Shown: positions 4,664-62,800, counted from the first letter of the stretch. The stretch is DNA of 64,000 nt from Nitrospirota bacterium (GCA_016222905.1 JACRPZ010000005.1:66346-130345); one strand, 5' to 3'. The notes: generated by a model from the letters alone, not told the origin. Translations and numbers: made by a program.

Positions 4664-5368
4664 CTAAGACTTCTTTCTTTTTAGAAGATTTTCTATGGTT
4701 TCTACAAGTTTTTTTGGCGAGGTCATCATCTTTGACAAAAACTCGTCAGCGCCTGCATCGAGCACCTTATTAATGGTGTCTTGGGAGCTCTTTGAAGAAA
4801 ATACTATAACAGGAATATCTCGCCATTGTTCGGAAGCTTTAAGCATTGCCAGTACTTTAAAACCATCAATATTTTCCATGTGAAGGTCAAGGACTATTAA
4901 ATCTGTCTTGTCGACATTGAGATACTTAATAGCTTCATAACCGTCTTTTACTTCATTAACCTGAAAACCCTCTGATACCAGTTTGCTCTTGCATACTCTC
5001 CTTGAAGTATCACTATCTTCAACCAATAAAATGCACTTTTTCTCGGAATTGTCAGGGCTTGTTTGGGTAGCCAGGTATTCAATGTGCTTTTTTATAACAT
5101 CTTTCTGTTCATCGGTTAGTTCGACGAACTTCAGTCCCATGCCAACGCTTGGTTGATTATGCTGTATGTTCGCTTTTACGGTTATCGTAATATCTTTAAT
5201 AGGCAAGGTGACATCTACAATATTCCCAGGTGTAAATGAGCGGCCAGTATGGACATATAAACCCTCTTCACTTATGTCAATTCCCTTGACAAGAATCTTG
5301 TTATTAATAATGATATCTTTTAAAAATGGGATCCTCTTATGTTTTCGGAGTTCTTTTTTGTTATTCAT
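4664..5368 (-). CDS. PilZ domain + response-regulator receiver hybrid protein
   Basis: 234 aa. N-terminal PilZ motifs RKHKR (RxxxR) and DISEEG (DxSxxG). C-terminal REC domain (LLVEDSD, LIVLDLHMENIDG, VIVFSSK, FLSK). No output domain. Confidence 0.75.
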   Translation of the reverse strand: MNNKKELRKHKRIPFLKDIIINNKILVKGIDISEEGLYVHTGRSFTPGNIVDVTLPIKDITITVKANIQHNQPSVGMGLKFVELTDEQKDVIKKHIEYLATQTSPDNSEKKCILLVEDSDTSRRVCKSKLVSEGFQVNEVKDGYEAIKYLNVDKTDLIVLDLHMENIDGFKVLAMLKASEQWRDIPVIVFSSKSSQDTINKVLDAGADEFLSKMMTSPKKLVETIENLLKRKKS

Positions 5369-5556
5369 GCTAATGATTACCAGTTTTAACCTTCATCTAT
5401 TTCATTATACCAAAAGCTAACTTTTTGTATGGTAAAAGCCGTTAAATATCGTAACGTTACCGGAACAACTCATTGATGGAACCATAAACTAGCCGTGGTA
5501 AAATGGAAGCATCAGGTTTACGGAACAGCAACATTATGAGTTAAATGACAAGAAGT

Positions 5557-5633
5557 TGGTGGCGGTGGCTGGACTCGAACCAGCGACACTACGGATATGA
5601 GCCGTATGCTCTAACCGACTGAGCTACACCGCC
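5557..5633 (-). tRNA. tRNA with CAU anticodon (elongator Met, or Ile2 if lysidine-modified), encoded CCA
   Basis: The reverse complement GGCGGTGTAGCTCAGTCGGTTAGAGCATACGGCTCATATCCGTAGTGTCGCTGGTTCGAGTCCAGCCACCGCCACCA folds as a cloverleaf. It has a 7-bp acceptor stem, GCTC/GAGC D stem, TACGG/CCGTA anticodon stem, CTCATAT loop and GCTGG/CCAGC T stem. The 1-72 position is a G-C pair, so it is not an initiator. Confidence 0.9.
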
Positions 5634-5716
5634 TATGGAAAGGAAGCAAATCAGGGTCATAAGCTAACAAAACTAAGCGCTCAAAGTCAAATTAGTTAAG
5701 AACGCTGATGTTAACC

Positions 5717-5875
5717 AGAAAAATGCAGATATTGCTCAATCAGATAATTAACTCGATGAATTTATTGAAATAATATGCAGAAGGCTTTAAATAGAAGAGT
5801 GTGCGCTCATGATAGTTAATATTGTGACTAAGGTATCGTCCCGAAGCATCGGGATCACAACACCTGCATTTTTCT
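5717..5875. mobile_element. MITE-like element, copy A (159 bp, 17-nt terminal inverted repeats)
   Basis: Left end AGAAAAATGCAGATATT (5717-5733) matches the reverse complement of the right end AGAAAAATGCAGGTGTT (5859-5875) at 15/17. The internal segment GCTCAA..TTAACTCGATGAATTTATT is shared with the copy at 52864. It carries an internal hairpin, GTCCCGAAGCATCGGGAT. Confidence 0.6.
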
Positions 5876-5923
5876 TAATACATTTTTTGAATTAGGAACA
5901 CTTTTTGTCAGGAGAAATAAAAA

Positions 5924-8452
5924 CTAAAGCAGGAGCCCAAGATTTATTATCTCATCTCTCCAACTTGAGACCTTTTTTAAACTGAAATCCTGATAGGTTT
6001 GTACGCTATATCCATTATCTTTCAGATTTACAATAACCGCTCCGTCAATATCTGTTCTGTAAATCCTTGTGCCCGCAGCGTTATATCTTTCGAGTGTTGC
6101 CGGATTGGGATGATTATAAGCATTGTATTTGCCGACGCTTATAACTGCGGTCTGAGGAGCGACCGCTTTAATAAATCCTTCTGAACTCGATGTCCTCCCT
6201 CCATGATGGGGAACTTTTATTATATCGCTCTTAAGCCATTTTCTTAGAGGCATCAAACTTTCCTCAGCCTCTGCCTCAATATCGCCGGTAAAAAGTATCG
6301 AGGCTTTATCCGATTCAATCGTTAAAACAAGGGAGCCGCTATTGTAGTTTGAAAAGTCGCCGCGTTCTGAATCAGCAAAGAAATCATCATAAGGATGAAG
6401 CACTTGAATCTTATAATTATCTGTCCCAAGGACATCCCCGCGCCTCTTAACTTCATAATGAATTTTGCTCTCTTTTACCTTCTCAAAAAATATCTCTGAT
6501 TCAGGCGATATTTCTCCATTCAGCCAGATCTCTCCGATCTTAAAATTATCCATTAGGTAGAGAAAACCGCCGAAATGGTCCGGATGCGGGTGGGTTGCTA
6601 CAAGATAATCAACGCGCCTTATACCTTTTGACCATAGATGCGGGGCGATGACCCTCCTTCCCATATCAGGTTCATATTTTCCTCCGTCAATAAGCATCAC
6701 CCTTTTATCAGGCAATTCCACAAGGGCAGAGTCTCCCTGTCCAACATCAAGAAATGTGACTTTAAAGCTATCACCGGAGAGATAGGGGCTGATCATATAA
6801 ACGCAGAGAACCAAGAGGAGCGGTAGAAACCTCCATTTAGTTCCGTTTATGAAGATAAAGAGCAGGCCAAGATAATAGAGCGCAATAATTGAAAATGACG
6901 GGTCAGGGATATGGAGGCTTGCATAAGGTATGTCAGAAAAGAGTTTAATAAGGCGCAAAGAAAAATGTGTTGCCGCGTCAGTCAGCGGACTCAACGGCAT
7001 TGAAGAGATATTGGAGAAGAGCGCGGCAAAGCCTGTAAAAAAACCTAACGGCAATATTATAAAACATACCAAAGGGGTCACAATCAGATTTGTTAAGGGT
7101 GAATAGAGAGGGAATTGTTTAAAGACAAGGGCAATTAGCGGCGTGGTGCCTAAAACCGCCGCTGTGGTCATCAGCAAACCTGTTTTAGTCTGTTCAACCG
7201 CCTTTGTAATCAGCCGCCCGTCATCTTTGTTCTGCATCTCCGGCAAGGCTGGCTGACCGAGTTGATCTTGCTTCCTATTTTCAATCACATAGCCTAATGA
7301 AAGCACCGCCATAAAGGAGAGCTGAAATGAAAGCTCAAAGAGTGTGCCCGGGTTCCACAGCAGGATAATAACCGCTGCGATCGAGAGGGAATTCAGCCAC
7401 TCTCCTTCTCTTCCAAGGAAGAGCGCGAGCATATAGATAAAGATCATTATAAAAGAGCGGACGGTCGGCGTGCTCAATCCTGAAATCACGGCATAGAAGG
7501 CTAAAACAGGCAGGGTCAGCATAACAGCCGCTTGCGTTGGAGTTATATATAAACTTGCTCTTGAAAGAAACTTACCAGGCAGGGATTTGACCAGGGACTT
7601 TGTAAGCTTAAATATTATAAAGGCAAGCATGCCGAAATGCGTTCCTGAGATGCTCAGCAGATGCGCCAGTCCCGTAGCGCTGAACGCGTCTCTCATATCC
7701 TGCCCTATGCCCCTTTGAAATCCCAGTATTATCGCCTTGTGGAAAGATGCGTTCTCTGCTGAGAGGCTTTTATCTATTATTCCGCCTAACCGCTGACGCT
7801 CTTTATATATCCATGCTAACAGCCCCTTTCCTTTTTCCGTCACCTCCAGACCGGTTACATTGCCTGATGCCGCAATGCCTTCTTTCTTTAGATCGTATAA
7901 ATACACACCGGGGTTATGGAGAGGAGCAGGCTCTCTTAGTATTGCAACAGCACTGACCCTGTCGCCATATCCCGGCAAAAGATAATCCTTATCCTTATAA
8001 GCTTCTTCCGGTAAAAAGAGCCTAACTTTCCCATCTATCATCTTCCCGTTTATATATACATCACTAATGGTTAAGCGGAGATTCTCACCTGATATTTCCG
8101 GCACATCAACAACAATGCCCTGCACAACAGATGCCTTATCCGGCAGACGTATATCCTGAAGAGGCTCGCTTCTGATATGGCTATAGAGAAAGCCAAACGC
8201 GAATATGAATAGCAATATGAATGCCCTTACCTTATTCAGTCCTTCGACAAGCTCAGGATGACTGTCATGGTGAGCCTGTCGAACCATGGATTCCCGCCTG
8301 CGCGGGAATGACGAGAAAAGTTTTTTCAACGGTCTATCGAAGAATAAAAAAGCGGCGGTAATAAGAGAAAGAATGATTATTGAAAAAGGGAAGAACTGAA
8401 AGAAGTTGTAAGCTGCGATTCCAAGGATAAGAGATGCGGCCACACCTGTCAT
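5924..8452 (-). CDS. comEC: DNA internalisation competence protein ComEC/Rec2
   Basis: 842 aa. Polytopic competence domain plus C-terminal metallo-beta-lactamase domain ([19 protein letters not shown]). The start overlaps the glmM stop by 4 nt. Confidence 0.85.
8241..8313. repeat. REP-like palindromic module inserted in frame inside comEC
   Basis: The GAGC(C/T)TGTCGAA motif occurs in inverted (8244-8255) and direct (8272-8283) copies, and again at 14345-14356. The hairpin GGATTCCCGCCTGCGCGGGAATGACG (8288-8313) resembles 12908-12937. Translates as [28 protein letters not shown] in ComEC. Confidence 0.65.
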
Positions 8453-10445: not shown

Positions 10446-11209
10446 TTCTTCTTCTCTTTTTGCGCCGTAAGATTTTCAGCAAGAAAATTCCTCAGAGCCC
10501 CCATATCCATGTTCTTCACAAGCTTGCCGCCTGTTGACGCACCGATACTGCCTGTCTCTTCAGAGACTATTATGACAACAGCGTCCGTCTCCTCAGTAAG
10601 CCCCATACCGGCCCTGTGCCGGGTGCCGAGAGTCTTTGAAATTCCTGCGCCTAATGTCAGCGGCAGAAAACAGCCAGCCGCAACAATCCGGTTTCCCCTG
10701 ATTATAACAGCGCCGTCATGAATCGGCGACGTAGGGTGAAAGATGCTTAGAAGAAGCTCATGCGATACCCTTGCATCAAGCTTTATTGCCATTTCAGAAA
10801 AGTCGCTGAGACTGGTCTCTCTCTCAATAACAATTAATGCGCCTATCTTTCTGTTTGCCAGAGAGACCGATGCCCTGATAATCTCTTCAAGCGACCTTGA
10901 TTCTTCAGCGCTGCTGAAAGAAGGGAGAAAGCTCGCCTCACCCATATGGGCCAGCGCCTTCCTGATCTCCGGCTGAAAAAGTATGATAACGGCAAGAACG
11001 ATCTGCGCCCACAGGCTCTGAATAATCCAATCTATTGTATAAAATTCAAGGGAGCCTGAGAAGAGAAAGGCTAAAAAAAAGACGCCGAGGCCGATAAGCA
11101 TCTTCGCGGCTTTTGTCCCCTTAATGATCAGAAGGACCCTGTAGAGTATTACGGCAACAATCAGGATATCAACAATATCCTGCCAGCGTATGTTCTTAAG
11201 GATTTCCAT
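10442..11209 (-). CDS. cdaA: Diadenylate cyclase CdaA (DisA_N/DAC domain)
   Basis: 255 aa. Three N-terminal TM helices, then DAC motifs HDGAVII and GTRHRAG. Confidence 0.85.
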   Translation of the reverse strand: MEILKNIRWQDIVDILIVAVILYRVLLIIKGTKAAKMLIGLGVFFLAFLFSGSLEFYTIDWIIQSLWAQIVLAVIILFQPEIRKALAHMGEASFLPSFSSAEESRSLEEIIRASVSLANRKIGALIVIERETSLSDFSEMAIKLDARVSHELLLSIFHPTSPIHDGAVIIRGNRIVAAGCFLPLTLGAGISKTLGTRHRAGMGLTEETDAVVIIVSEETGSIGASTGGKLVKNMDMGALRNFLAENLTAQKEKKK

Positions 11210-11222
11210 AATTGGCTTATAT

Positions 11223-11603
11223 TTATTTCAAAGGCAACAGTATCTTTTTGTTTGGATAATGTTCTTTATTCTTTGTGGCGATTTTGTGGCCTCTTACAAC
11301 AGCAGTCGCATTGACAAGACAGTCAATAGATGTAAGAGTAAGTCCCTCTTTTCTGTATTGCCTGTAAATCTCTCCGGCTTCCATAGTGATTTCAATTGTG
11401 ACGGGTTCAATAATGCATGCATTGACAAATTTCTCGGTATCTTCTGTTTCATTGTCTCTCATTCCTGCATAAAGTTCATATACTGAAAGAATGCTTAAGT
11501 ATGCCGTATTGCTGTCCCACAGATGGAGCATGAGTTCATTGGCATATTGATAGCCGCGAAGATAGTCAATTGCAATATCGGTATCAACTATTACGGTCTG
11601 CAT
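11223..11603 (-). CDS. vapC: PIN-domain toxin (VapC family)
   Basis: 126 aa. VIVDTDIAIDYL N-terminus with conserved acidic residues. Overlaps the upstream small antitoxin ORF. Confidence 0.7.
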   Translation of the reverse strand: MQTVIVDTDIAIDYLRGYQYANELMLHLWDSNTAYLSILSVYELYAGMRDNETEDTEKFVNACIIEPVTIEITMEAGEIYRQYRKEGLTLTSIDCLVNATAVVRGHKIATKNKEHYPNKKILLPLK

Positions 11604-11820
11604 AACGCCGCTTATCCTCTTTTCTTATGTCACTAACTATCTCAACGCTGCGTTTGTCTCTTTTTCCCCATTTGCCGAAACTGGACATCGCTTTTTCAAC
11701 TTTCTTTCTTCTAAGATATTCTTTGAGCGCTTCAGAAACTACTGAGCTGAAATTATCCGAGAGTTTTTTGGCTTCATTAAATACATCATCAGGGATATTA
11801 ATGGAAGTTTTGACAGACAT
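11584..11820 (-). CDS. Type II antitoxin (VapB-like, ribbon-helix-helix-like N-terminus)
   Basis: 78 aa. SINIPDDVFNEAKKLSDNFSSVVSEALKEYL reads as a beta strand plus two helices. 20-nt overlap with the PIN gene. Confidence 0.55.
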   Translation of the reverse strand: MSVKTSINIPDDVFNEAKKLSDNFSSVVSEALKEYLRRKKVEKAMSSFGKWGKRDKRSVEIVSDIRKEDKRRYADRNS

Positions 11821-11838
11821 ATCGGCCTCCTAATTAGT

Positions 11839-11907
11839 GTCATTCCGTGCCTGGCACGGAATCCAGAGCCTTTTAATTATCTTGATTCCGTTTTTACTTG
11901 GAATGAC
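11839..11907. repeat. REP-like hairpin pair (GTCATTCC...GGAATGAC type)
   Basis: GTCATTCCGTGCCTGGCACGGAATCC (11839-11864) and GATTCCGTTTTTACTTGGAATGAC (11884-11907). Same family as 12866-12937, 8288-8313 and 52952-52974. Confidence 0.6.
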
Positions 11908-11968
11908 AAATACTGCAATCTTTATTATTATAAGGTATTACTAAAGAGTATGCAATTATTATTTTTTT

Positions 11969-12757
11969 TCAAAGCATTAAAGTACCCCCCAATATGTATA
12001 TGAAGTGCCCCTTGATCTCCAGATCATCTTTCTCCCAGTTTGCAGGCAAAGGCCAGAACGGCTCAGCATCCTTGAGCGCCTTTATTGCCGCCTTATCAAG
12101 CTCCATGAACCCTGATGTTCTCACAACTTCTATCTTCCCAAGCTTTCCGTCTTTTTTTATAACAAAATCTATATAGAGATCGCCTGATATGCCGAGCCTT
12201 GCCGCCTCCGGTGGATAAACCCATATGCTTTCAATCTTCTGTGTCAGCATCCGCATATATCCTCTATGCTTAAACTCCCCGACATCAAATGTCAGTCCCT
12301 TCTTCTCAGGCGGAGAGGCATTCTTTGCAAACTTCTCAATGGTGTCTCTGTCAAAAAGACGAGACCGCATGGAAGCAGACGAATCATCCGGCAGCGCTGA
12401 TAATGGCGCATCCTTTTGCAAGTGAGAATCACCATTTTCGCTGCTGCCTGAACCTTCCGAAGATTTGGCGTTACTTGCCGGAGGCGTTGATATGCTATCT
12501 TCGCCATGCATAGTCTCAGGCGATAATCTATTATCAGGCGGACGGTGACGATTGTAATCAGGCAGCGGGGATTTTTCCCTGCTTAGTTTGGGGCGTTCTG
12601 CTTTTAGAGTAGGCAGCGGAAGAGCATCAAGGGGATCAATAAGATCAATATCAAATACAGAGAGACCGGTATTTTGGTCAGGCTGTATTACTGCCAGCAA
12701 ACCAATCAGCAACAGATGGGCTAATACAGCTAAAGCTATATAACGATTGAAACTCAA
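11969..12757 (-). CDS. TonB-family C-terminal domain protein
   Basis: 262 aa. N-terminal TM anchor, Pro/Ser-rich linker and TonB_C-like end (YPPEAARLGISGDLYIDFVIKKDGKLGKIEVVRTSG). Confidence 0.65.
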   Translation of the reverse strand: MSFNRYIALAVLAHLLLIGLLAVIQPDQNTGLSVFDIDLIDPLDALPLPTLKAERPKLSREKSPLPDYNRHRPPDNRLSPETMHGEDSISTPPASNAKSSEGSGSSENGDSHLQKDAPLSALPDDSSASMRSRLFDRDTIEKFAKNASPPEKKGLTFDVGEFKHRGYMRMLTQKIESIWVYPPEAARLGISGDLYIDFVIKKDGKLGKIEVVRTSGFMELDKAAIKALKDAEPFWPLPANWEKDDLEIKGHFIYILGGTLML

Positions 12758-21713: not shown

Positions 21714-21769
21714 TCCGCCCTATATCAACCTATTTGCTTTACAATTTATACTATAATACATCACATACC

Positions 21770-22483
21770 ATGAAGTTTCTTGCGATCCTGACAGCAGTCC
21801 CGTTTGAATCAGAGCTGATTCTGAAACAGATGAAGAACGTCCGCAACATTAAGACCGCCGGTAAAATTGTTTTCAAAGGGAAGCTTTTAAATCAGCATGT
21901 CCTGCTTATGAACTCCGGCATAGGGAAAGTGAATGCAGCTCACTCCTCAACATTAATTCTTGAGAATTACCCGGTAAAATGCATGATCAATTCAGGAGTC
22001 GGCGGAGCATATCCGAATTCAGGGCTTAAGATCGGCGATATTGCAATAGCATTAAAAGAGATTTATGGAGATGATGGGGTGATAGCTCCAACGGGCTGGA
22101 AAGATTTAAAAGAGATAGGCATACCGCTTTTACAAATCGGCATGAGGAGATACTTTAATGAATTTCCGCTAAATCAGGCGGCACAGATTCCGGTTAATAG
22201 CGGAAAGGGCTTTCAAATAAAGAGAGGCGTCTTTGTTACGGTCTCTTCTGTAACAGGGACACATCAAAGGGCTCTTGAACTTGAAAACCGCTTTAACGCT
22301 ATCTGCGAAAACATGGAGGGCGCAGCCATCGCTCATATATGCGCAATGCATAAAGTCCCTCTGCTTGAAATCAGGGGGATAAGCAACATAGCCGGCATAC
22401 GGGATAAGAGGAGATGGAACCTAAGCCTTGCTTCAGAAAACTGCCAGCAGACGGTTCTTGAGATTATCCCGTATTTGAGGTGA
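21770..22483 (+). CDS. mqnB: Futalosine hydrolase (PNP_UDP_1 family)
   Basis: The ATG at 21770 gives MKFLAILTAVPFESELI. SGIGKVNAA, ENMEGAAIAHIC and EIRGISNIAG motifs match the MqnB/MTA-nucleosidase pattern. Confidence 0.55.
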   Translation: MKFLAILTAVPFESELILKQMKNVRNIKTAGKIVFKGKLLNQHVLLMNSGIGKVNAAHSSTLILENYPVKCMINSGVGGAYPNSGLKIGDIAIALKEIYGDDGVIAPTGWKDLKEIGIPLLQIGMRRYFNEFPLNQAAQIPVNSGKGFQIKRGVFVTVSSVTGTHQRALELENRFNAICENMEGAAIAHICAMHKVPLLEIRGISNIAGIRDKRRWNLSLASENCQQTVLEIIPYLR

Positions 22484-22577: not shown

Positions 22578-23696
22578 ATGGGAACGAACAACGTCGTATT
22601 TCTGGAAGTTTTAGAGTGGTTCGATAAGACCGGAAAAGAGATCGTTCAAAGAATACCGGAACACGGTTCAGGAGAGATAAAGTACGGGGCACAGCTTATT
22701 GTGAGGGAGAGCCAGGCTGCTGTCTTCTTTTACAACGGCAAGGCTTATGATGCCTTCGGCGAAGGACGCCACACCCTCAAGACCGCCAACATTCCTATAC
22801 TCAATAAAATTATCAGCATCCCATGGGGCATGACAAGTCCTTTGAGGGCAGAGGTATACTTTGTCAACATGAAGGTCTTCCCCAATCTGAAATGGGGGAC
22901 AAAGGACCCGGTGGCATTCAAGGATTCCAAACTTGGGCTCGTGCGTCTAAGAGCTTTCGGGATATTCAATATCAGAGTGCTTCAGCCGGTCCTTTTTATA
23001 AACAGGCTTGTGGGCACACAGGGGATATTCACTACAGAGGATATTGAAGATTTTTTAAGCCGCGTGATTGTTTCGCGTTTTAACGACCATCTTGGCGAAA
23101 AGCTTGACTCGCTGCTTAACCTTCCGGGTAAATATGACGAATTGTCAGACGGGCTGATGAAGCGCCTTGAAGAAGATTTCAGTCATTACGGACTTGGACT
23201 TTCACAAATATTTATAAGCTCAATCACCCCTCCTCAAGAGGTACAAAAGGCCATAGATGACAAGAGCCGGCTTAGTGTTTTTGACGATCTTGACAAACTA
23301 ATAAAGATGAAGGCTGCCATGGCCATAGAAAAGGTCTCAGAACAGCAGGGTGAAGCAGGGGCGGGGGTTGGAATGGGGCTTGGAATTATGATGCCTGCAA
23401 TGTTTTCCGACTTTATGAAGAAGACCCCTGGTAGCCCGTCAGGCGAAACAACCGTATGCCCTGACTGCAAGAATCCTGTCTCCAAAGAAGCAAGGTTCTG
23501 TCCTTCCTGCGGAAACAATCTGCTTATCTTTCAGCAGTGCGCCAAATGCGGGAAGAATATGCCTCCAGATGCAAAGTTCTGTCCGCAATGCGGCGCGCAG
23601 GCTGCGCAAATAAAAGAGCCGAAAAAATGCCCTCATTGCAGCGCTGAAAACCTGGCAGAATCAGTATTCTGCAACCGGTGCGGTGAAAAGCTCTAA
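22578..23696 (+). CDS. SPFH/band-7 domain protein with C-terminal zinc ribbons (COG4260/YdjI-like)
   Basis: 372 aa. The N-terminus is like YdjI-type SPFH proteins. The C-terminus has three CxxC-x(n)-CxxC ribbons (CPDCKN..CPSCG, CAKCGK..CPQCG, CPHCSA..CNRCG). Confidence 0.7.
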   Translation: MGTNNVVFLEVLEWFDKTGKEIVQRIPEHGSGEIKYGAQLIVRESQAAVFFYNGKAYDAFGEGRHTLKTANIPILNKIISIPWGMTSPLRAEVYFVNMKVFPNLKWGTKDPVAFKDSKLGLVRLRAFGIFNIRVLQPVLFINRLVGTQGIFTTEDIEDFLSRVIVSRFNDHLGEKLDSLLNLPGKYDELSDGLMKRLEEDFSHYGLGLSQIFISSITPPQEVQKAIDDKSRLSVFDDLDKLIKMKAAMAIEKVSEQQGEAGAGVGMGLGIMMPAMFSDFMKKTPGSPSGETTVCPDCKNPVSKEARFCPSCGNNLLIFQQCAKCGKNMPPDAKFCPQCGAQAAQIKEPKKCPHCSAENLAESVFCNRCGEKL

Positions 23697-25017
23697 CAAT
23701 ACAAACCTTCTTATTGAACACCAGTGCCCTCAATGCGGAGGGCCTGTAACGCTTGAAGAGACAGACAGGCTTTTCCTATGCAATTACTGCCGCGTAAGGC
23801 TTTATATAACCGCAAAGAATTATTTCCGCTATTTCCTCTCACCGGCTAAAGAATATACGGAGGATACGATATTCGTGCCTTACTGGAGATTCAGGGGCGC
23901 GTGCTTCTCTCTCAAGGCTCTTACGATAACTGAAAAGGTGATGGATACGAATTTTCTTGCCACAAGGCAGGATTTTCTTCCATATTCCCTCGGATTCAGG
24001 GCGCAGACACAGAGATTGCGATTTGCCGACAGAAATATCAAGGCCGGTATCATAAATCATAACATACCATTCAACGAGGTCATTCAACAGGTCGAAACGG
24101 TTAAACGCTTTACGGACAATCTTATAGTTCGTGATATCGTAAAAAATAAAATACCGCTTAATGAGGCCATTCAACAAGTCGAAACGGTTAAACACGTTAC
24201 GGACAAACTTATCTGTAATGATGTAGTCTTTCACAATGTCTTTATAGGCGAGACTACAAGCATCATCTACGCGCCTCTCTACATCAAAAATAATGCAATA
24301 TATGATGCGGTGCTTGACAGGCCGCTGGCACAACATACTCTGCAGAGAGCTGAGACATTTCAATCCCTCGATACGGAGCGGAACTGGGGCGTAAACTTTG
24401 TCTCCGCACTCTGCCCTGATTGCGGATGGGACTTGACTGGAGAGAGGGATAGCGTAGCGCTCTTATGTAAAAACTGTGATACCGCATGGGAAGAGTCCGG
24501 CGGAAAAATGAGCAAACTGGATTTCGGGGTAATCCTATGCAAGGAACGGGACGTGATATATATCCCTTTCTGGAAGATGAAGATAAACTTCGAGGGAATA
24601 AGTCTGAAGACTTACGCAGACCTCATAAAGATTGCAAACCTTCCAAGGGTAATAACCGATAAACTGCGGGAGAAAGAACTCTTTCTCTGGGCTCCTGCCT
24701 TTAATGCCCGGCCAAACCTCTTCTTAAGATTAGCAGAACAATTGTCTGTGCTTCAGCCGGAAGAGGGATTTGAGAAGACAATTCCTAAATCTGAGATGTA
24801 TCCGGTTACCCTCAAGGCAAACGATGTTATGGAGACTGTCAAGATAATAATTGCGGACATCGGAGTCCCTAAAAAGAATATCTTTCCTGTAATCCCTGAG
24901 ATTAAGATGAAATTAACAGAATCGCTTCTTATCTATCTGCCATTTAAGGAAAAAGGGGATGAGTTAATTCATGAGCAGATGGGACTAAGCATCCTGCGAA
25001 ATGCGCTGAGAAGATAA
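23683..25017 (+). CDS. Zinc-ribbon protein of unknown function (YdjG-like partner of the SPFH protein)
   Basis: 444 aa. GTG start overlapping the upstream gene by 14 nt. Two ribbons (CPQCGG..CNYC and CPDCGW..CKNC). Contains an internal 29-codon tandem duplication. Confidence 0.5.
   Translation: MKSSNNTNLLIEHQCPQCGGPVTLEETDRLFLCNYCRVRLYITAKNYFRYFLSPAKEYTEDTIFVPYWRFRGACFSLKALTITEKVMDTNFLATRQDFLPYSLGFRAQTQRLRFADRNIKAGIINHNIPFNEVIQQVETVKRFTDNLIVRDIVKNKIPLNEAIQQVETVKHVTDKLICNDVVFHNVFIGETTSIIYAPLYIKNNAIYDAVLDRPLAQHTLQRAETFQSLDTERNWGVNFVSALCPDCGWDLTGERDSVALLCKNCDTAWEESGGKMSKLDFGVILCKERDVIYIPFWKMKINFEGISLKTYADLIKIANLPRVITDKLREKELFLWAPAFNARPNLFLRLAEQLSVLQPEEGFEKTIPKSEMYPVTLKANDVMETVKIIIADIGVPKKNIFPVIPEIKMKLTESLLIYLPFKEKGDELIHEQMGLSILRNALRR
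24064..24237 (+). repeat. 87-bp (29-codon) tandem duplication inside the zinc-ribbon gene
   Basis: 24064-24150 and 24151-24237 align at both nucleotide and protein level (IPFNEVIQQVETVKRFTDNLIVRDIV / IPLNEAIQQVETVKHVTDKLICNDVV). Confidence 0.8.
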
Positions 25018-25120: not shown

Positions 25121-26199
25121 TCAAAACTGCTTATCTCGACTTAAATAATTGTTCTCAAGAAACTTTATGGCCGCCGTTGCTGCGGAAAGGGAAGCTAATG
25201 GCTGCCATATTTTTCGTAATTTAATGTCTCCATTGAGCGTGTCTTTTGAATTAGGGTCGCCAAAATCAGAGATGCCTTTGAACACTAACCAAAGCACACC
25301 TAATTCATCACAGGTACTTGCAAAGCCGCTTGCCTCCATTTCATAAAGTCTAGCTTTTTCATCATATTCATAAATAAGACTTTTTATAGAGCCGTCCGCA
25401 ACTAAATCAGGACCGGAAAGAATATTATTTGAATGAAAGGAGGGCGTCCATGATGGCTCGACTTTGGGTATTTCGCTATACATTGCAAGTCTAGGCATAC
25501 AACTGTGCAACAATTCTTTCCATCTCAACTGTTCTGGGTCAAAGTATTCAATATGCCGCGATAAGACAGGCCCAAGTTTAAAAGGATCTGGCCTTTTTTT
25601 CGGACCATCTGGCTCGAGTCTTCGTGAGGATATGTCCCATACAGTCGTGGCAACTACTACATCGCCAAGATTTACTTTGTCTTCCAATCCTGCGCCCATA
25701 CCCATCAAAATAAATAACTGAACATCATAATTACTGAAAGTGTTCTGCAGGCGTTAGCACAATTAATGCCTCGGTCATGTCCTACCATTGTAAGTACAAC
25801 ATTCAGAGGTCGTTCAAAATGATTACTAGTCACTGTGGTTTCCCAATAACGATAGCCCGAATCCGTTTTAGTTTCCATTGTTCCCTTGTCTATATTCAAC
25901 GCAACCATGGCAGCATATAACTCAGGTTTCTTTATTGTAATGATGGCCACATCAGCTCTTGGTTTAATAGAGACCTGTTGCACATTTGATTTTTTCATAA
26001 TTTCAATGGTCCGTTCGTCGTTAAAAGATTTGTAGAGATTTAGCAGATAATACAATTTAGCTTCTTGTCTTAGATCTCTGACTCTTGTGGCAAAATCATG
26101 CAATAATACTGTCCGTTGCCTTTCATCTAACGTATCCGAAAGTTTTTTCAAAAGCACGCGGCAACTGATTTCACCATCTTCTTTTAAAGGGATATTCAT
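25121..26199 (-). pseudogene. N-terminal helical domain + PNP_UDP_1-family nucleosidase effector, interrupted by a frameshift
   Basis: Two ORFs (25705..26217 and 25121..25708) together give one phosphorylase fold: ADVAIITIKKPE..., GHDRGINCANA | LQNTFSNYDVQLFILMGMGAG..., EMEASGFA, KGISDFGD. The likely start is the ATG at 26199, which makes an ATGA overlap with the upstream stop. Confidence 0.7.
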
Positions 26200-27911
26200 A
26201 TGGCAATTTCTTCCCATGTATTCATATTAAGTTCATAAAGAACATAAGAGTCGATGTCAGTTGGATCGTTCGTTTGATCAAAATTAAATACCGCAAAATG
26301 ACAAAGAACCTCAAGCCCCTTGTGCCTTAGTATTTTGCTAAGGATTCGGCGAGTTTTACCAGAAGCACAAAATTCTTCCACAATTACTACTGGTTGCAAT
26401 TTTGAAGCAGAAGATAATTGCATGCACCATGTGTCCTGCTCACATTTTTTCAATAATCCTGCAATATCATCATCGCTCTTAGATGAATTAATCACTCCTT
26501 TAGGAATATGAATTATGCTCATACCCTTAATAACACCGAGGTAATCAGCTAACGCATTGGCTCCCTTTTCGTCGGGGCAAACTAATAATAGAGGCTGAGC
26601 CGGATAATTTTTTGAATGTGAAATAAGTCTTTCAGTAATTTTTCTTGCAAGCCAAGCCCCGTTCTGAAGAATCATTTTTTCAAAATCTGGGATCAACCCC
26701 AGCCCTGTCCTATAGGCAGGAACATCTTTTTCCTCAGCCCAGCCCGCCTTATCAGCCATTTCCCAGATGTCATAAGTTGTAAGCATTGCATAATCTTCAT
26801 GGTCAAACTTTGATCCTGGAATCTCAAGCTGACACATTGGACATTTGTCAATATAGGTTTGTCGTTCAATTTGTAAAAAGTATCTTATCTTATGTTCATC
26901 ATACGCACCGTTGGCTTGAAATAAACTGTTGTGACCAACCCCCCTTGTGGTTAGCACTGTAAGTACGTTGGGCTTTGGGAAACCTTTCTTTTTCCATTCA
27001 TTTAGTATCAATTCGCAAGTATTGCCAGTATCTATTAACGGAAAAAGAATCAAAGGGGCAACTGAATAGTTGCACTGGATTTTTGCAGTATTCCCCAGAA
27101 AATCGTTAATGTTAATACATTCGGCTCCAATTTTTTGTGCGACTGCGATAGCTGGATTTTTCAGCCAATCAGAAAACTGTTTATAGTACAAAATCAAGGG
27201 TACTTGCGTTTGATATTCTTTATCAATATATTCCAAAATTAGCGTGACCAGTTCTTTCTCGCAGTGAGTTCCATCATAGAAGTACCTAACACAATGTTTT
27301 CCTATTTGATTTTCTTTTTTGAAATGCCCTAACCGTCTTATCATTTTAATTTGAAGCAGATCAAGCGAGTTATTGCTGACATCAGCCTTTTTTATCTTGT
27401 ATTGCCCCAGATCAATCGAAAGTGACTTTTCTGCCAAATAGTTGCCATCATTATCGATGAAAACCACTTTCCCTTCTGCAATACGTTTTTCAAGCATCCT
27501 GTGAATCATCTCGCCTTCAGGTGGCAGTTCCGGGACTAATAAAATATATAAGGTTGGTTTTTCAGCTTTATATATTAGCGCATCTATTGCAGCAGCTATT
27601 TGAACATCTACAGGACCAGAAACAACACTATCTGCTGATAAGGTTTTATCAAAAACAGCAACATCTACGTTTGAATCCCATACCTGAAAACGTTCAAATA
27701 TTTTTTGAAAAGTTACACTAACCTCCTCTTCATACTCGTATAGATTGAGTGCCAATGTAATATCATGACTTCCATCCGATGGCAGATAAAGTTCACAATC
27801 CTCTTGCATTACGACACCTGCCAGCCACTTATAAAATTGTACAAGGTCATTGGACAAACGCTCAGAAATTGCAGCCCCAAAATTAAAAGGAATCAGCCCA
27901 AGTTTTTTCAT
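26196..27911 (-). CDS. Protein with two type-I phosphoribosyltransferase-like domains and an unknown N-terminal domain
   Basis: 571 aa. PRPP-loop-like motifs APLILFPLIDTGNT (degenerate, acidic pair lost) and PVVIVEEFCASGKT (canonical EE-xx-xSGxT). 4-nt overlaps with both neighbouring genes. Confidence 0.6.
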   Translation of the reverse strand: MKKLGLIPFNFGAAISERLSNDLVQFYKWLAGVVMQEDCELYLPSDGSHDITLALNLYEYEEEVSVTFQKIFERFQVWDSNVDVAVFDKTLSADSVVSGPVDVQIAAAIDALIYKAEKPTLYILLVPELPPEGEMIHRMLEKRIAEGKVVFIDNDGNYLAEKSLSIDLGQYKIKKADVSNNSLDLLQIKMIRRLGHFKKENQIGKHCVRYFYDGTHCEKELVTLILEYIDKEYQTQVPLILYYKQFSDWLKNPAIAVAQKIGAECININDFLGNTAKIQCNYSVAPLILFPLIDTGNTCELILNEWKKKGFPKPNVLTVLTTRGVGHNSLFQANGAYDEHKIRYFLQIERQTYIDKCPMCQLEIPGSKFDHEDYAMLTTYDIWEMADKAGWAEEKDVPAYRTGLGLIPDFEKMILQNGAWLARKITERLISHSKNYPAQPLLLVCPDEKGANALADYLGVIKGMSIIHIPKGVINSSKSDDDIAGLLKKCEQDTWCMQLSSASKLQPVVIVEEFCASGKTRRILSKILRHKGLEVLCHFAVFNFDQTNDPTDIDSYVLYELNMNTWEEIAI

Positions 27912-29119
27912 ATCTCATCTGTTTTCTGCAACGGCAAATTAACGGTCAGCATATTGCCCAGAAACTGCGCGCTGGAATAATATCGAGCATTAACCTCGTA
28001 ACCGTAGCTATCAGATTTAGCAGGTTTTATTTCCATAAAATATCCCTTTGTCCGAAAAGAAACGCTCCCATGATATACATTGCAAGCCGCATTTATCAAT
28101 AGATATAGACCCATACCAGGCGACGATAAAATTGGATTTGCCGCTGTTTCAGGACTAGGCACATGAGTCTCTCCTTTTAAATCACAAGTTATTCCTGGAA
28201 ATGTTGCCGCTAAAAGTAGATGTAAGTCCGAAATTGTTTTATCGGGAATCAAATCCGAAGTCAAAATAACAGGCTCTGTTTTATTTCCATCTATGTATTC
28301 GCACACTAATCGATACTTATCGATTATATTTATGGCTCCTCTGGTTAACGCATTCCCATTATTTAATACTTCTCTTAAAGTATCTATCATGCTTTTCCCG
28401 TCATCCCACCAAGTAATTGCCATTTGGCCTTTATTTTGGCCTTTGTCGATTCTTAAACATGAAGTTGTCAGAATAATACTAGCATTAGGATGACGGACGG
28501 CATTCATTATTGCCTCAAAAACAATTCTTGAAGCAAAAAAACCATGCGGCCCATACAAATGCTTCTCTAAAACAGAAGAAATAACTTCTCGTTTCCAGCG
28601 ATTAGCTTCTGTAAGAGCACGTCCCACATTAAAAGAATCGCCCGTATTGCAAAGCTCTAAAATGGGAAGATAATTCTGAAGTATTCTTTCCCATTTACCA
28701 TAATGATTAAATAATTTTCCAGCATAAGTCTGTTCATTCAAACTTGGATTTTCTCCGAAATAACTACGATCTTCTTCCGTAACAATAGCCCAGAAACTCA
28801 ACCCTGTAGTATTCTTTATTGTATCTGGAAATGACCAAGATCTAAGAAAGTCTCTTACTTTTTTTAATCTCGGCAATTTCAAAATTGTTTCCCGATCATT
28901 CCGCGTCCTATTAATTAAAAGAGAGATTAAATAAATAAGGCAGGAAGGTTCAATAAATTCCGACTTTGAAAAATCAAGGACTAAAGACTGCTTATTGTCG
29001 CCTTTTGACGAATAGTAACTAAACCGTCGATCTAAATGTTCCAAAGTGACGTTTTCTGAAAAAGGTATATTCATTCTGTCTGAAACATCTACTTTATTAG
29101 GTTGCTGCATACAAGGCAT
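27908..29119 (-). CDS. STAS-like N-terminal module + GHKL (HATPase_c) ATPase, RsbW/SpoIIAB-like
   Basis: 403 aa. LVLDFSKSEFIEPSCLIYLISLL..LKLPRLKKVRDFLRSWSF is STAS-like. The N box is FEAIMNAVRHPNAS, the G1-like box is WWDDGKS and the G2 box is SSPGMGLYLL. No HisKA H-box. The start could be the second ATG at 29110. Confidence 0.55.
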   Translation of the reverse strand: MPCMQQPNKVDVSDRMNIPFSENVTLEHLDRRFSYYSSKGDNKQSLVLDFSKSEFIEPSCLIYLISLLINRTRNDRETILKLPRLKKVRDFLRSWSFPDTIKNTTGLSFWAIVTEEDRSYFGENPSLNEQTYAGKLFNHYGKWERILQNYLPILELCNTGDSFNVGRALTEANRWKREVISSVLEKHLYGPHGFFASRIVFEAIMNAVRHPNASIILTTSCLRIDKGQNKGQMAITWWDDGKSMIDTLREVLNNGNALTRGAINIIDKYRLVCEYIDGNKTEPVILTSDLIPDKTISDLHLLLAATFPGITCDLKGETHVPSPETAANPILSSPGMGLYLLINAACNVYHGSVSFRTKGYFMEIKPAKSDSYGYEVNARYYSSAQFLGNMLTVNLPLQKTDEI

Positions 29120-29293
29120 GTGTCCTTTCTATATAAAATTCAAAAAAATATTAAGGATAGAAAAAATGCACGGGCTACTTTTTCTCATCCCCCAGCCTCT
29201 TCCTTCAAACTCTTATCCTTCCGCTGCTTCCCTCTGCTCCATAAAAAAATCTTTGAAACATCTGACAGTAGAATCTTCGGCTCATCCGGCGCT

Positions 29294-29641
29294 CTATGCG
29301 CCTGCATCCCTAATAAATCCCCTGACCGCATCCATTAAGCCCGGAAGGTCCTCCTGAATGACCTTCCACACTATCTCAAGGTCAACTCCGAAATATTCAT
29401 GGATAAGGAGATTTCTAAAATCCTTTATGTCCTGCCATTCCACATCGGAGCGTCTTTGTTTCAACTCATCAGGGAGCTTCCCGACAGCCTCGCCGATAAT
29501 CTCAAATTCCCTGATAACCGCCGAATATGTTTTTCTCTCGTTACAGAAATCCTCAAAGGTAATACCGGCAACATACTCCGTGACCGCATTACATGAGTCT
29601 AAAATGTCCGCAAGATATAGCTGAATATCCCTTTCAGGCAT
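29294..29641 (-). CDS. hepT: HepT-like (DUF86) RNase toxin
   Basis: 115 aa. Rx4HxY motif in FRNLLIHEY. Overlaps the upstream MNT gene by 8 nt. Confidence 0.8.
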   Translation of the reverse strand: MPERDIQLYLADILDSCNAVTEYVAGITFEDFCNERKTYSAVIREFEIIGEAVGKLPDELKQRRSDVEWQDIKDFRNLLIHEYFGVDLEIVWKVIQEDLPGLMDAVRGFIRDAGA

Positions 29642-29936
29642 AAATAATTTGTTTTATAACTTTGTCTTTTATCGCAGGTTTCAGAGAATGCTCAAACCCA
29701 AGGTCTATTTCCCTTTCCATCTCATTCTCTAAGAACCTCTTAAGCTTTAGGAAACTGTGAATGTTTTTTTTGTCTTTATCCATTTCTACGACCATGTCAA
29801 TATCGCTTGCTACTGATTGCTCGCCGCGTGCAAAGCTCCCGAAAATTCCGATTCGTATAACACCGAAGCTTTTTCTAAGCAATTCACTGTTTAGTCTTAA
29901 AAAAGATATTATTTCATCCGCAGATGTCTTTTTCAT
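29634..29936 (-). CDS. mntA: MNT-type nucleotidyltransferase antitoxin
   Basis: 100 aa. GIFGSFARGEQSVASDIDMVV (GSxxRG..SDxD) minimal nucleotidyltransferase motif. Confidence 0.8.
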   Translation of the reverse strand: MKKTSADEIISFLRLNSELLRKSFGVIRIGIFGSFARGEQSVASDIDMVVEMDKDKKNIHSFLKLKRFLENEMEREIDLGFEHSLKPAIKDKVIKQIIYA

Positions 29937-58742: not shown

Positions 58743-58756
58743 GTTTACAATCACTG

Positions 58757-59593
58757 ATGAATGATAATAATAAAAAAGATCGACAGTTAATATATATTTC
58801 CATATTAATCCCTCTTTTTATTTTGCTTAGTAATTTATATTTGGGGTTGTTAGTTAATAAGGAAGTCGCTTTCTTAGGAAGAAAACCGATTGTTTTTTTA
58901 ATTTTATTTTTAAATTCTTTCTGGATTATTCGGTTTATATGGGAAAAGTTAAGAACTATTAATAATAAAAAATTTTATGAGATGTATCGGTATATTTGGC
59001 TTTATGTCCCCGCGTTATGGTCCATTGGGGTTGGTTTATACTTTGCTACAGCAGCAATATTTTTTGGTTTTGTTTCTGTAATTTCTTCTGATAAGGATAA
59101 AATTGAGTTAGCTTCAGGGTTCGTATCTAGCCATGTATTTTATGAGTGTGGTTGGATTATTCTAATTGCATTCCTATCAATGTCAAAAACTGTTATGGAT
59201 AAGATTGGAAATCTCAAAAGACCAGGACATTATTCGGTAATTATTGTTGCTCTCTTGTGGGTTGTAATGTATTTGAATCCTGAAAAAGCTATGCTACCTA
59301 AAACTTATAATGAGCTAAAACCTAATTTAATTGTACTGATTGTTGAAATACTCTATATATGGGTATTTTTAATGATCTTGTTCTCACTTTTTAATAAGAA
59401 AAAATCTACAAATTTAATAGGTATCATAAGTTGCTCAATTATTATTATGCTTATTTTCTTCACAAATATAGGACTAAATTATGTAAATAGGTTTACCTAC
59501 AACTTTCTTTTTTTTGGCCCGACTATTTTATTTGCGATGCTTAGTTTAGAAATAATTTTATGGCAGGCTTTAAGAAAATTGGGTAAAAGATAA
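58757..59593 (+). CDS. Polytopic membrane protein, candidate immunity protein for the Rhs tail
   Basis: The ATG at 58757 is 15 nt after the Rhs stop. About 8 hydrophobic helices and very AT-rich (15 G+C in 58861-58920). This is the position expected for an immunity gene. Confidence 0.5.
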   Translation: MNDNNKKDRQLIYISILIPLFILLSNLYLGLLVNKEVAFLGRKPIVFLILFLNSFWIIRFIWEKLRTINNKKFYEMYRYIWLYVPALWSIGVGLYFATAAIFFGFVSVISSDKDKIELASGFVSSHVFYECGWIILIAFLSMSKTVMDKIGNLKRPGHYSVIIVALLWVVMYLNPEKAMLPKTYNELKPNLIVLIVEILYIWVFLMILFSLFNKKKSTNLIGIISCSIIIMLIFFTNIGLNYVNRFTYNFLFFGPTILFAMLSLEIILWQALRKLGKR

Positions 59594-59802
59594 AAGGGCC
59601 ACCCAAAAATAGCGAGCAAAGGAACGGGGTCTTGTTCCGTGCATTTTGCGTAGGATAATAGGGGCCTCACCCATTTTACGGAGTCGGCACACTTAAAGGC
59701 AGAATTTTAAACACCAATAAGGAGCCTGTTGAGGGCGTAACCGTCCAGATAAAAAATATAAAGGCGGTTTCAGATGCGAATGGATACTTTACCCTTGAGA
59801 AT

Positions 59803-62800
59803 GTGCCGTCAGGCAGACGGCTTCTCATGGTACACGGCTCCACCGTAAAAGACGGCAGCCATTATCCGACAATCCCTCTTTCAATTGAGATTCAGGCAGG
59901 CGCGGTAACCGAGATGCCTTTCCAGATATACCTTCACCGGCAGAAGAACTATAACTTCAAGGATATAAATCCTGATGAAGATACCGTTCTCACGGATCCC
60001 GAAGTTCCGGGCTTTGAGATAAAGATCCCAAAAGGCATAAAGATCACAGGATGGGACGGAAGTCCGAATAAAAAAGTGTCAGTCAGGACAGTGCCGATAG
60101 ACAGGCTTCCTGTAAAGCCCCTTCCGTCTAATGCAGATGTGCGCACGGTCTATATGTTCTATTTTGATAAAGAGGGCGGCGGCATACCTGACGCGCCTAT
60201 TGCCATTAAGTCTAAAAACGACCTCGGCCTCCTGCCCGGACAGAAGGCGGTGCTATGGTATTATGACGAATCACCAAACGAAGGAGAAGCGCCGAATGAC
60301 TGGGCCATAGCAGGCACAGGCACAGTCACCCCTGACGGAAAATATATAGTCTCAGACCCCGGCGTAGGTATTCCAAAATTCTGCTGCGGCGCGACAGCAT
60401 GGGGAGGGTCAGGCAGCGGCGATGGGCCGAGCGGCTCTGACGGAGACAGCGGCGGCGCTGGAGGAGGCGACGGAGGCGGAGCTGGTGGTGGTGCTGGAGG
60501 TGGTGATGACCCTCCCGGAGGTGATGACGGAAATAATAAGAACCCTGACCCTAACCGTTGCCCCAATGGCAATGCGGGTGATCCTGTTAACCTTGCAACA
60601 GGCTATTTCCTCCATTCAAAAACAGACCTTCATATACCGGGTATCATCCCTGTGAATATAACAAGGTATTACAGAAGCGGCGCCACCGGACTGGGCGCCT
60701 TTGGCATAGGAACATTTTTTGAATATGACTGGTGGCTTGGCGCTTATGACGCAGACGGCAACTTAACTGATACCGATCCTACCATGCTTTTGCTTATCAA
60801 GCCGGGGAATTTTCAATACAGGTTTGATGTAAAACAGGCAGATGGGACATTTATAAATGACTCAAATCCTGCAATGCGCGGTGCAGTTATTACAAAGAAT
60901 GCAGACAACACAAAAACCATGAGGATGAGAAACGGCTGGACGTATAATTTTGATAGCAGCGGTAAACTTATAGAGATAGCTGACAGAAACGGCAATCAAC
61001 TTACTCTTACAAGACACTCTGACTTTGAAGGCGGATATATAAGTGGAATAACTACATCGGAAGGCAGAACAATAACCTTCAACCAGACCTATACAGGAAA
61101 TTTCTTCCAGACAGATTCAATAACCGACTCAGCAGGCGGGACTGTAACATACACCTATGAGACAGTACCCTCCAGTGTATACCCAAGATTAAAGACCGTC
61201 ACCTATCCTGACGGTGGTGTGCTGAACTATCACTATGATTCGGCCGGGAGAATGTCGGAGATTAAAAATGAGAGAGGAGCCAGCGAAGTTATAAATGAAT
61301 ACTATGATACGCCTGCTGAAAAACAGAATAGAATCTACAGGCAAACGCATGCAGATGGAGGCATTTACACATTTGACTACACAATTCCAAGCGGTAATAT
61401 AACACAGACTTCAATGACAGCCCCGAACAGCGCGGTGACAACATGGAGATTCTATGATGATCTGGGCAATTATCATGATGGATACATAGTAAAAAAGACA
61501 ACGTCTGACGGAGCAACTGTTTATGAAAGGGATTTAGTGTCAAATCAGATAAAGTCAGTCACAGACCCGCTCAACAGGGTGATGAGCTACACTTACTATC
61601 CGAATGGACTGGTACAGACAGTCACTGACAATCTCGGCAATGTGACTAATTATGAATACGAAGCGGTCTACGGCCTGACCACAAAGATAACGGATGCAAA
61701 CCTGAAGGAGACAACTTTTGCATTTACATATGATGCGAACAACAAGATAACAAAGAAAGAAATAAGAGACCCGCTTCTGCATCTAACGACAATCAATTAC
61801 AATTCAAACGGGATGCGGACAAGTATAACAGACCCGAACAATAACACGACAACATTCTATTATGACAATGCAGGCAAGCCTGCCGAGCTTACCAGGATTA
61901 TCAGCCCATCTCCCATAAACAGCACGACCACTATGACCTATGACAGCCGTGGAAGATTATGGACAGTCACTGACGCATTGGGCAAGACAACAACCTATAC
62001 ATATGATGAGATGAACAGGATATATGAAGTAAAAGATCCGCTTGACGGTATAACGAGATATACTTATGATAAAAAAGGGAATCTCAAATCAGTCACAGAT
62101 GCAAAAAACCAAACAATAAGATATGAATATGATAATAGAGACAGGATCAAGAAGATGACTGACCAGTTGGGAAGGGAAGAGGTTTATACTTATTACACAG
62201 GCGCGGAGATAACGCCGACAACAGGCGATAACCTCAAGAGCATAACAGACAGAAAAGGGCAGACAACGACTTTTAATGAATATGATTTTATGGGCAGAAT
62301 TAAAAAGATAACCTACGATGACGGCTCAACAGTTAATTACACCTATGATTTAGCCGGGCGAATTGATTACATCAATGATTCAGTATCAGGCTTCATAGAT
62401 TACACATACAATGACTTTGGATGCACAACATGCTCCGGTATCGGCAGAGACAGGATTTCACAGGAAGTAACGCCCCTTGGGACAATAGATTACACATATG
62501 ATAAACTTGGCAGAAGGGAGACAATGACAGTAGCAGGAGAGCCTGTAGTGACTTATACAAAAGATGATGCTGGCAGGATGACGAAAATATCCAGAGCGAT
62601 AAACGGAACCACGAGGGACTTCATTATAACTTATGATAATGGCAATAGAAGGACATCAAAACAGATTTTTTTATATCGCCATGGCAACAAAGATTATTAT
62701 TTGACGAATAATTATAGTTATGATAATGCAAACAGGTTAACGGAAATAAAACATCAGTTGCGGGATTCTATCATAGAAGACCTTGTTTATGAATATGACC

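Follow-up and report, generated by a model that had tools for sequence, protein, structure and literature searches.

Three genes that lie in the same direction on the minus strand of a 64,000-nt stretch of Nitrospirota bacterium DNA (GCA_016222905.1, JACRPZ010000005.1:66346-130345; hereafter the window) raise the question of what process they serve and whether they belong to a system that has already been described. The genes, called A, B and C here, occupy positions 25121 to 29119 and encode a STAS–GHKL protein, a protein with two phosphoribosyltransferase (PRTase)-like folds and a PNP-family nucleosidase. A preliminary description of the window, made from its sequence, had proposed that they form an undescribed defence operon. 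With some reserve, we favour the view that this locus holds one copy of a three-gene conflict system which is conserved and spreads horizontally; the system is most likely an anti-phage one that acts by abortive infection, and it is apparently undescribed. The broader statement, that the trio serves conflict or defence and has a PNP as its effector, is likely.

Gene order, distribution and genomic setting

Open reading frame (ORF) calling placed gene A at 27908-29119 (minus strand, 403 aa), gene B at 26196-27911 (minus strand, 571 aa) and gene C at 25121-26199 (minus strand, 359 aa when a frameshift is repaired). For gene A the gene callers favour the ATG at 29110, which gives a protein of 400 aa instead of 403 aa. 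Genes A and B share the ATGA stop/start overlap gagatATGAaaaaac at 27908-27911, and genes B and C share a second overlap of this type, gccatATGAatatcc, at 26196-26199. The three genes are translationally coupled. The layout and both overlaps had been noted in the preliminary description, and direct reading of the sequence at these positions confirmed them.

Hidden Markov models (HMMs) of the A, B and C families were scanned over all fetched loci. The order A–B–C was kept in all of the approximately 26 distinct loci, wherever the contig reached far enough, and these loci include the ones reached from the most distant A homologs. The layout seen in the window is not due to chance, because the same three families stand in the same order in each related locus examined. 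No further gene was conserved with the trio in the ~26 loci. In four lineages (L019, P0127, P0147 and P0151) B and C form a single ORF, and these fusions provide strong evidence, at the level of sequence, that B and C act together physically.

The families are rare and widely scattered. A search of 5.8 billion proteins found 39 homologs of A. For B, a word-indexed search gave only 9 clusters, and an exhaustive HMMER search of 1.84 billion proteins was needed to size the family: 532 representatives, mostly of 550-600 aa, reached E<=1e-3, and 329 of them E<=1e-30. B was present in only 8 of 185,579 species genomes, and these belong to at least six phyla; the carriers are Desulfosarcina, Sulfotelmatobacter, Bryobacterales, Ca. 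Magnetobacterium, Ca. Magnetaquicoccus, Rhodocyclaceae, Sulfuritalea and Phycisphaerales.

Many copies of the trio are found on mobile elements or among conflict genes. In a Syntrophales metagenome-assembled genome (MAG; locus L012, 3974-17350), the trio and a TIR_2 gene are located in a prophage, flanked by its genes for the large terminase (GpA) and the portal protein, and in this position the trio looks like moron-type defence cargo. Another copy (L023) is carried on a Tn7-like element together with TIR and Vsr, and a third (L024) on a conjugative element with relaxase, TrwB, HicAB and integrase genes. The neighbours at other loci are IS66/IS110 elements, a CAP12-type TIR, an AAA_21/DUF4435 protein and AbiEi (L013), GmrSD and HEPN (L011), or PycTM, Ymh, a resolvase and an integrase (L005). 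The closest ortholog of the trio (L001, 2691-8283) is located immediately downstream of the pair formed by PIN-TPR-GreABC and permuted GreAB-C and has SNF2, RadC and DUF6094 genes nearby, and its surroundings are a dense conflict-gene island. AbiEi/AbiEii adjoin the trio at another locus, and a HepT–MNT pair adjoins it in the window. The GC content across the trio is 36-40%, compared with ~43-47% in the flanks of the window; a search for flanking repeats in the window found none that mark an insertion boundary. Comparison of the homologues over ~26 loci thus agreed with the proposed link to defence, as the trio is strictly conserved, mobile and often found beside defence or toxin–antitoxin genes.

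Domain composition of the three proteins

Protein C consists of a helical N-domain and a nucleosidase of the Cap17-like PNP/MTAN family. The Pfam family PNP_UDP_1 matched it with 28.6 bits, above the cut-off. Its defence affiliation was examined with the models of PADLOC v2.0.0 (2023), which were used together with full-text literature searches for comparison with known systems. The repaired protein of the window and ten orthologs were compared with these models, and 11 of 11 matched PDLC00759, the model for the CBASS 'PN-superfamily' effector of Cap17 type (best 1.2e-46; repaired window protein 8e-28). This match is far better (1e-46) than those of C to housekeeping MTA/SAH nucleosidases (MTANs), which ranged from 1e-8 to 1e-14, and on sequence grounds C is affiliated with the immune PNPs. 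Residues E287-M288-E289 and D312 are invariant in the C family and S311 is nearly so. These EME and SD motifs align with VEMEA and ISD of MTA/SAH nucleosidases, which were matched at 8e-14 and contain the ribose-binding Glu174 and the general-acid Asp197 of MTAN, and from this alignment the catalytic Glu and Asp of C are judged intact. The extent of the PADLOC model alignment suggests that D312 corresponds to D472 of Cap17. The PNP domains of Cap17 and Detocs cleave ATP and dATP to adenine, and among the PNP clades theirs alone is enriched near defence genes (bioRxiv 10.1101/2023.01.24.525353). As a member of this clade, C may also cleave ATP and dATP. The N-domain of C (~80 residues), a short helical bundle, gave no family match.

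In the window, gene C is divided into two ORFs, one at 25705-26199 (164 aa from MNIPLK) and one at 25121-25708 (~195 aa). Three-frame translation against the closest intact ortholog, that of L001 (359 aa, 75% identical), placed the frameshift in a 1-nt deletion in 'CTTTC' ('aca CTTTC agt') at ~25736-25740 on the minus strand; the ortholog reads ACRTL-Y-SNYDV where the window has aca-ctt-tca-gta. Three Logan assemblies made independently from other sequencing runs (L008, L009 and L010) show the same division of gene C, into 164 and 194 aa. This recurrence rules out an assembly error and means that the lesion is real in that population. At every other examined locus with a complete C, the gene is a single ORF. 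Programmed frameshifting was considered and rejected, since the site is not an X_XXY_YYZ slippery heptamer and the other complete copies of C are in a single ORF; for the same reasons gene C of the window is read as a pseudogene. Because C carries a fixed 1-nt deletion, the copy of the system in this window is probably inactive.

Protein B was modelled with AlphaFold2 at a pLDDT of 76. Foldseek found 361 matches of this model in the PDB at E<=1e-3 (prob 1.0), and among the matches listed all are type-I PRTases or PyrR except one hypothetical protein. The first PRTase-like domain (26778-27347, minus strand; residues 189-378) carries the degenerate phosphoribosyl pyrophosphate (PRPP) loop LILFPLIDTGNT. 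When this domain was searched alone, Pfam families Pribosyltran, UPRTase and PRTase_2 matched 10, 7 and 4 of 34 members, respectively, and its profile gave 41 matches in the PDB, nearly all of them PRTases (best E 0.0016). In an alignment of 123 full-length representatives, loop 1 keeps D[TS]GxT and has [VL][PD] in place of the acidic pair. The domain is bracketed by a nearly invariant KxIRRxGHF motif and by Cys207, Cys217, Cys357 and Cys360, which are kept in 99-114 of the 123 representatives; the conservation of these four cysteines suggests a structural zinc site (Cys4) that would join the two PRTase folds.

The second PRTase-like domain of B (26199-26729, minus strand; ~residues 395-571) was identified from Pfam, its loop motif and its fold, and contains the canonical PRPP loop VVIVEEFCASGKT. 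Pribosyltran matched residues 421-543 with E 5.5e-5, and the domain also matched APRT and PurR. Loop 2 reads [DE][ED]Fxx[ST]GxT in 113-122 of the 123 representatives, with [DE]512 in 122, [ED]513 in 113, G518 in 114 and T520 in 117. As judged from these residues, only the second PRTase domain keeps a complete PRPP loop. The N-terminal alpha/beta domain of B (27348-27911, minus strand; residues 1-188) shows alternating beta strands and alpha helices in the model, and G12, D88 and G156 are conserved. A search with 25 members gave no credible Pfam or PDB sequence match for it; its sole 'significant' match, a designed repeat protein, was judged spurious. Comparison of the N-domain with the PRTase domains of B by hhalign gave P of just ~0.03-0.04, and it is possible that the N-domain is a third, degenerate PRTase repeat.

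Protein A has an N-terminal STAS-fold domain (28802-29086, minus strand; ~residues 9-103 of the 400-aa form) and, at its C-terminus, an ATP-binding domain of GHKL type (Bergerat fold; 27926-28549, minus strand) in which the N, G1 and G2 boxes are present. Its AlphaFold2 model has a pLDDT of 87.9 and a pTM of 0.88. In Foldseek the N-terminal part matched TM1442 (1vc1; prob 1.00, TMt 0.62, rmsd 2.5), and further matches were the STAS domains of prestin and SulP, SpoIIAA and RsbV. When the A profile was compared with PDB sequences, the STAS proteins 1sbo (E 0.017) and 4hyl (0.033) ranked at the top, followed by the N-box region of DevS/DosT (E 0.1-0.17) and one other protein. The STAS match is therefore one of fold and is weak at the sequence level. 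In the A family the position of the phospho-Ser of SpoIIAA-type STAS domains is hydrophobic, with 'IE[VPIL]xx L' where TM1442 has 'MDSAGL' (the start of helix 3, D-S-x-G-L). The C-terminal part matched CheA P4 (prob 0.66-0.72) and, at lower probability, GyrB and ParE. The residues E199, N203 and H207 of the N box (FEAxxNAxRH), W235-D236-x-G238 of the G1 box and G332-M333-G334-L335 of the G2 box are invariant in the family alignment.

Neither a HisKA match in Pfam at E<=1 nor an invariant His outside the N box among 36 homologs was found in A. A therefore does not qualify as a classical histidine kinase. In the model, the segment that separates STAS from GHKL is built of short helices and beta strands and does not form a DHp hairpin. 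The best N-box sequence matches of A are histidine kinases of DevS/DosT/NarQ type, not SpoIIAB, and the idea that A is a specific relative of SpoIIAB/RsbW was rejected, as neither was among the sequence or fold matches. Most of what the preliminary description had read in the proteins was upheld. All the motifs that it quoted in A, B and C are present and lie on family-invariant columns. A is a STAS–GHKL protein without HisKA, B has two PRTase folds of which the first has a degenerate loop and the second a canonical one, and C joins a helical N-domain to a PNP_UDP_1 nucleosidase. Its comparison of the GHKL boxes with those of RsbW/SpoIIAB-type kinases gained no support from the sequence or fold searches.

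Relation to known systems and to other explanations

The effector type of the trio is known and its partners are new, and as a whole the trio is apparently undescribed. PADLOC assigned no system to it, and C alone matched the models; the 36 A proteins gave no match (0/36), and the 13 B proteins gave two marginal matches of a single member each, to a TIR effector (E 0.006) and to PRTase_III-A (E 0.024). Since PRTase_III-A matched only 1 of 13 at E 0.024, B stands outside the known defence PRTase clade. Full-text literature searches found no description that combines a STAS–GHKL protein, a double PRTase and a PNP nucleosidase. Some PNPs of the defensive clade are located in unreported operons, which are listed in Table S4 of the Cap17 paper (bioRxiv 10.1101/2023.01.24.525353), and members of the trio may be listed there, though not described.

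By its logic, the nearest system is Detocs, which is composed of the sensor histidine kinase DtcA, the receiver 'buffer' DtcB and the receiver–PNP effector DtcC (Rousset et al. 2023). Both are three-gene operons in which an ATP-binding protein of the GHKL class and a middle protein accompany a PNP of the Cap17 clade that carries a regulatory domain at its N-terminus, and by analogy the expected output of the trio is the same, namely the cleavage of ATP and dATP to adenine. However, A lacks the HisKA domain and H-box, the middle protein is a double PRTase of ~570 aa and not a receiver, and the N-domain of C is helical. Unlike in Detocs, none of the three proteins matched Response_reg at E<=1. 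The Detocs models were not among the PADLOC matches of C, which were to PDLC00759 and PDC-M60C alone.

The closest match to C is the catalytic domain of the CBASS effector Cap17 (up to 1e-46 over the PNP part). The trio differs from CBASS in that A and B do not match any CD-NTase/CBASS cyclase model in PADLOC, C has no recognised cyclic-nucleotide sensor domain, no Cap2 or Cap3 genes accompany the trio, and the conserved unit is A, B and C alone. The third protein of PADLOC PDC-M60, PDC-M60C, also matches the PNP part of C (up to 4e-23), but the models of its partners match 0 of 36 A and 0 of 13 B proteins, and only the effector domain is in common. B shares the type-I PRTase fold and the defence context with the defence PRTases, namely ShosT of ShosTA, the type III-A retron PRTase, PsyrT and OpnC of Ophion. 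It differs from them in having two PRTase folds, an extra N-domain and a Cys4 site, and no DprA-like, reverse transcriptase or rSAM partner.

The preliminary description had also proposed partner-switch-like control of the trio. As in SpoIIAB/SpoIIAA and RsbW/RsbV, A combines a STAS fold with a small GHKL domain that has no His-phosphotransfer domain. In A, however, the two are fused in one chain, and neither a sigma factor nor a PP2C phosphatase is conserved beside the trio at any locus examined. Because the phospho position of the STAS domain is hydrophobic and SpoIIAB/RsbW are not among the matches, the N box being nearest to DevS/DosT/NarQ, the partner switch is an analogy for the control of the trio and not a family to which it belongs.

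A model of how the trio might work can be outlined from these comparisons. B would bind C through the helical N-domain of C and hold the nucleosidase off. By analogy with PurR and PyrR, the input would be a phosphoribosyl ligand, either PRPP or some nucleotide, that is bound by the second PRTase domain of B. Once infection is sensed, A would switch the B–C complex on by ATP binding, ATP hydrolysis or Ser/Thr phosphorylation. C would then deplete ATP and dATP, so that the energy and dATP supply would collapse and phage replication would stop. This particular division of labour, with C as the effector, B as the scaffold or sensor and A as the switch, is tentative, at less than even odds.

It is quite unlikely, yet conceivable, that B is a second effector whose intact PRTase uses up PRPP or converts bases, such as the adenine that is released, with A still acting as the switch. 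Salvage of adenine to AMP and ATP by host or phage enzymes would then be blocked, and the depletion of ATP by C would become irreversible. The PRPP loop of B domain 2, which is nearly invariant including its acidic pair, would suit such a role, and the B–C fusions would fit two coupled enzymes. ShosT, the type III retron effectors, PsyrT and Ophion OpnC are moreover reported as effectors on nucleotide metabolism (bioRxiv 10.1101/2025.09.30.679545). B is, however, outside the clade of these PRTases as represented by PRTase_III-A, two of its three domains are degenerate, as would be more usual in a scaffold with a regulatory task, and the PPi-binding Arg of APRT is not conserved according to our reading of column 449. 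The apparent catalytic competence of B domain 2 also bears on another possibility, that B makes an unusual phosphoribosyl nucleotide upon infection which activates C, while A regulates B. Many systems with PNP effectors, such as CBASS, are driven by nucleotide messengers. We regard this as very improbable, since fusion of a producer to its effector, as in the B–C proteins, defeats the purpose of a diffusible signal, and C has no recognised nucleotide-sensor domain, its N-domain being a short helical bundle without a family match.

Other explanations would remove the anti-phage role altogether. The trio might stabilise mobile elements in the manner of an addiction or toxin–antitoxin module, with C as the toxin and A and B neutralising it. 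The trio is always on or beside mobile elements and toxin–antitoxin pairs, and by itself the PNP domain shows high toxicity in E. coli. Addiction would nevertheless require nothing nearly as elaborate as three large proteins, each of several domains, with conserved sites for ATP and PRPP, and the clade of C is associated with defence; we consider this explanation improbable. PRTases and nucleosidases are also enzymes of the salvage type, the window has a housekeeping PNP_UDP_1 gene at a distance of 2.6 kb from the trio, and some loci (L018) have metabolic neighbours alone, all of which could point to housekeeping or specialised nucleotide metabolism, such as purine salvage or the synthesis of nucleoside natural products. 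This is the least likely of the rival explanations, with very little probability left to it, and we reject it on distribution and context. The trio is extremely rare and spread patchily across phyla, it has a low GC content and is found on mobile elements and among defence genes, biosynthetic genes are not conserved beside it and the nearby PNP gene is not found at the other loci. C also matches the immune PNP model and not MTAN or futalosine hydrolases.

Several observations weigh against the favoured reading of the trio as an abortive-infection system. Every functional step of the model outlined above is one that we infer, and the C gene of the window is a pseudogene. The Pfam HATPase_c match of the window A is sub-threshold (E 0.043, 14.7 bits compared with a cut-off of 26.4), and because this score is under the cut-off the GHKL membership of A rests on motifs and fold. 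The Pribosyltran score of the window B is 23 bits compared with a cut-off of 26.3, and the STAS domain of A lacks the canonical phospho-acceptor Ser. Effector swapping was looked for in the ~26 loci and none was seen; such swapping is frequent among genuine defence systems of modular build. No homologs of A or B were found among viral contigs, sequenced phage records or plasmid records. At several loci, L002 and L018 among them, all neighbours of the trio are housekeeping or unannotated genes.

Surroundings of the trio and implications for nucleotide-depletion immunity

In the window, gene A is preceded by a non-coding stretch without an ORF (29120-29293, minus strand), which ends at the stop codon of HepT and is the presumed promoter region. 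It had been estimated at about 175 nt and measures 174 nt. A scan for promoters and terminators around the trio gave matches no more common than in shuffled sequence, and therefore no promoter is demonstrated upstream of A. Directly upstream of the trio, at 29294-29936 on the minus strand, are overlapping genes for a HepT-like RNase (PF01934, 1e-27) and an MNT-type nucleotidyltransferase (PF01909), which form a toxin–antitoxin pair. On the other side, a second PNP_UDP_1 gene (21734-22483, plus strand; 249 aa, 7e-33) encodes a protein similar to futalosine hydrolase/MTAN. The HMM of the C family barely matches it (9e-6), and it is not present in other trio loci; it is taken to be a housekeeping gene that is near the trio by coincidence. 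It is followed by a gene (22578-23696, plus strand) that encodes an SPFH/Band_7_1 protein containing three zinc ribbons and overlaps the start of a zinc-finger gene of 444 aa (23683-25017, plus strand). The latter contains an in-frame tandem duplication of 87 nt at 24048-24221, and the two copies are 79% identical. More patches of low GC are present in the window at 5001-6000, 11001-12000 and 58001-60000 (0.36-0.38, compared with ~0.43-0.45 for most of the window), and these may be other acquired segments.

A structural peculiarity was found at one related locus. In a Desulfosarcina MAG (L015, 2144-13793) the trio is located inside a tandem segmental duplication of 8.6 kb. Each side of the trio has a copy of two unannotated genes (~306 and ~347 aa), with 94-100% identity between the copies. 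A shorter repeat, 77-82% identical, occurs upstream of gene A and upstream of an ORF of 777 aa; by our reading it resembles the beginning of an HU-like gene.

ATP-nucleosidase effectors, that is, Cap17-like PNPs, are a recently recognised immune module common to bacteria and eukaryotes, and their off/on control is known in just a few contexts, for example CBASS and Detocs. The trio couples a Cap17-like effector with a STAS–GHKL fusion and a double PRTase, partners that are not linked to this effector in the available defence resources. It shows that the current defence catalogues miss systems which are confined to environmental lineages without cultured members. An unlikely but far-reaching possibility is that the trio is a new immune pathway, in which the double PRTase B would read the state of the nucleotide pool or make a phosphoribosyl signal, and the Ser/Thr kinase-like A would then license the ATP nucleosidase. 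If this is true, both partner-switching logic and PRTase chemistry would have been recruited to antiviral immunity, and the sensor would not be of the nucleic-acid or protein type. If the system is validated, it would provide a new logic of sensing and regulation for nucleotide-depletion immunity, PRTase-like folds would gain a role as regulators or as second effectors, and a compact three-gene system whose members always occur together would become available for mechanistic work.

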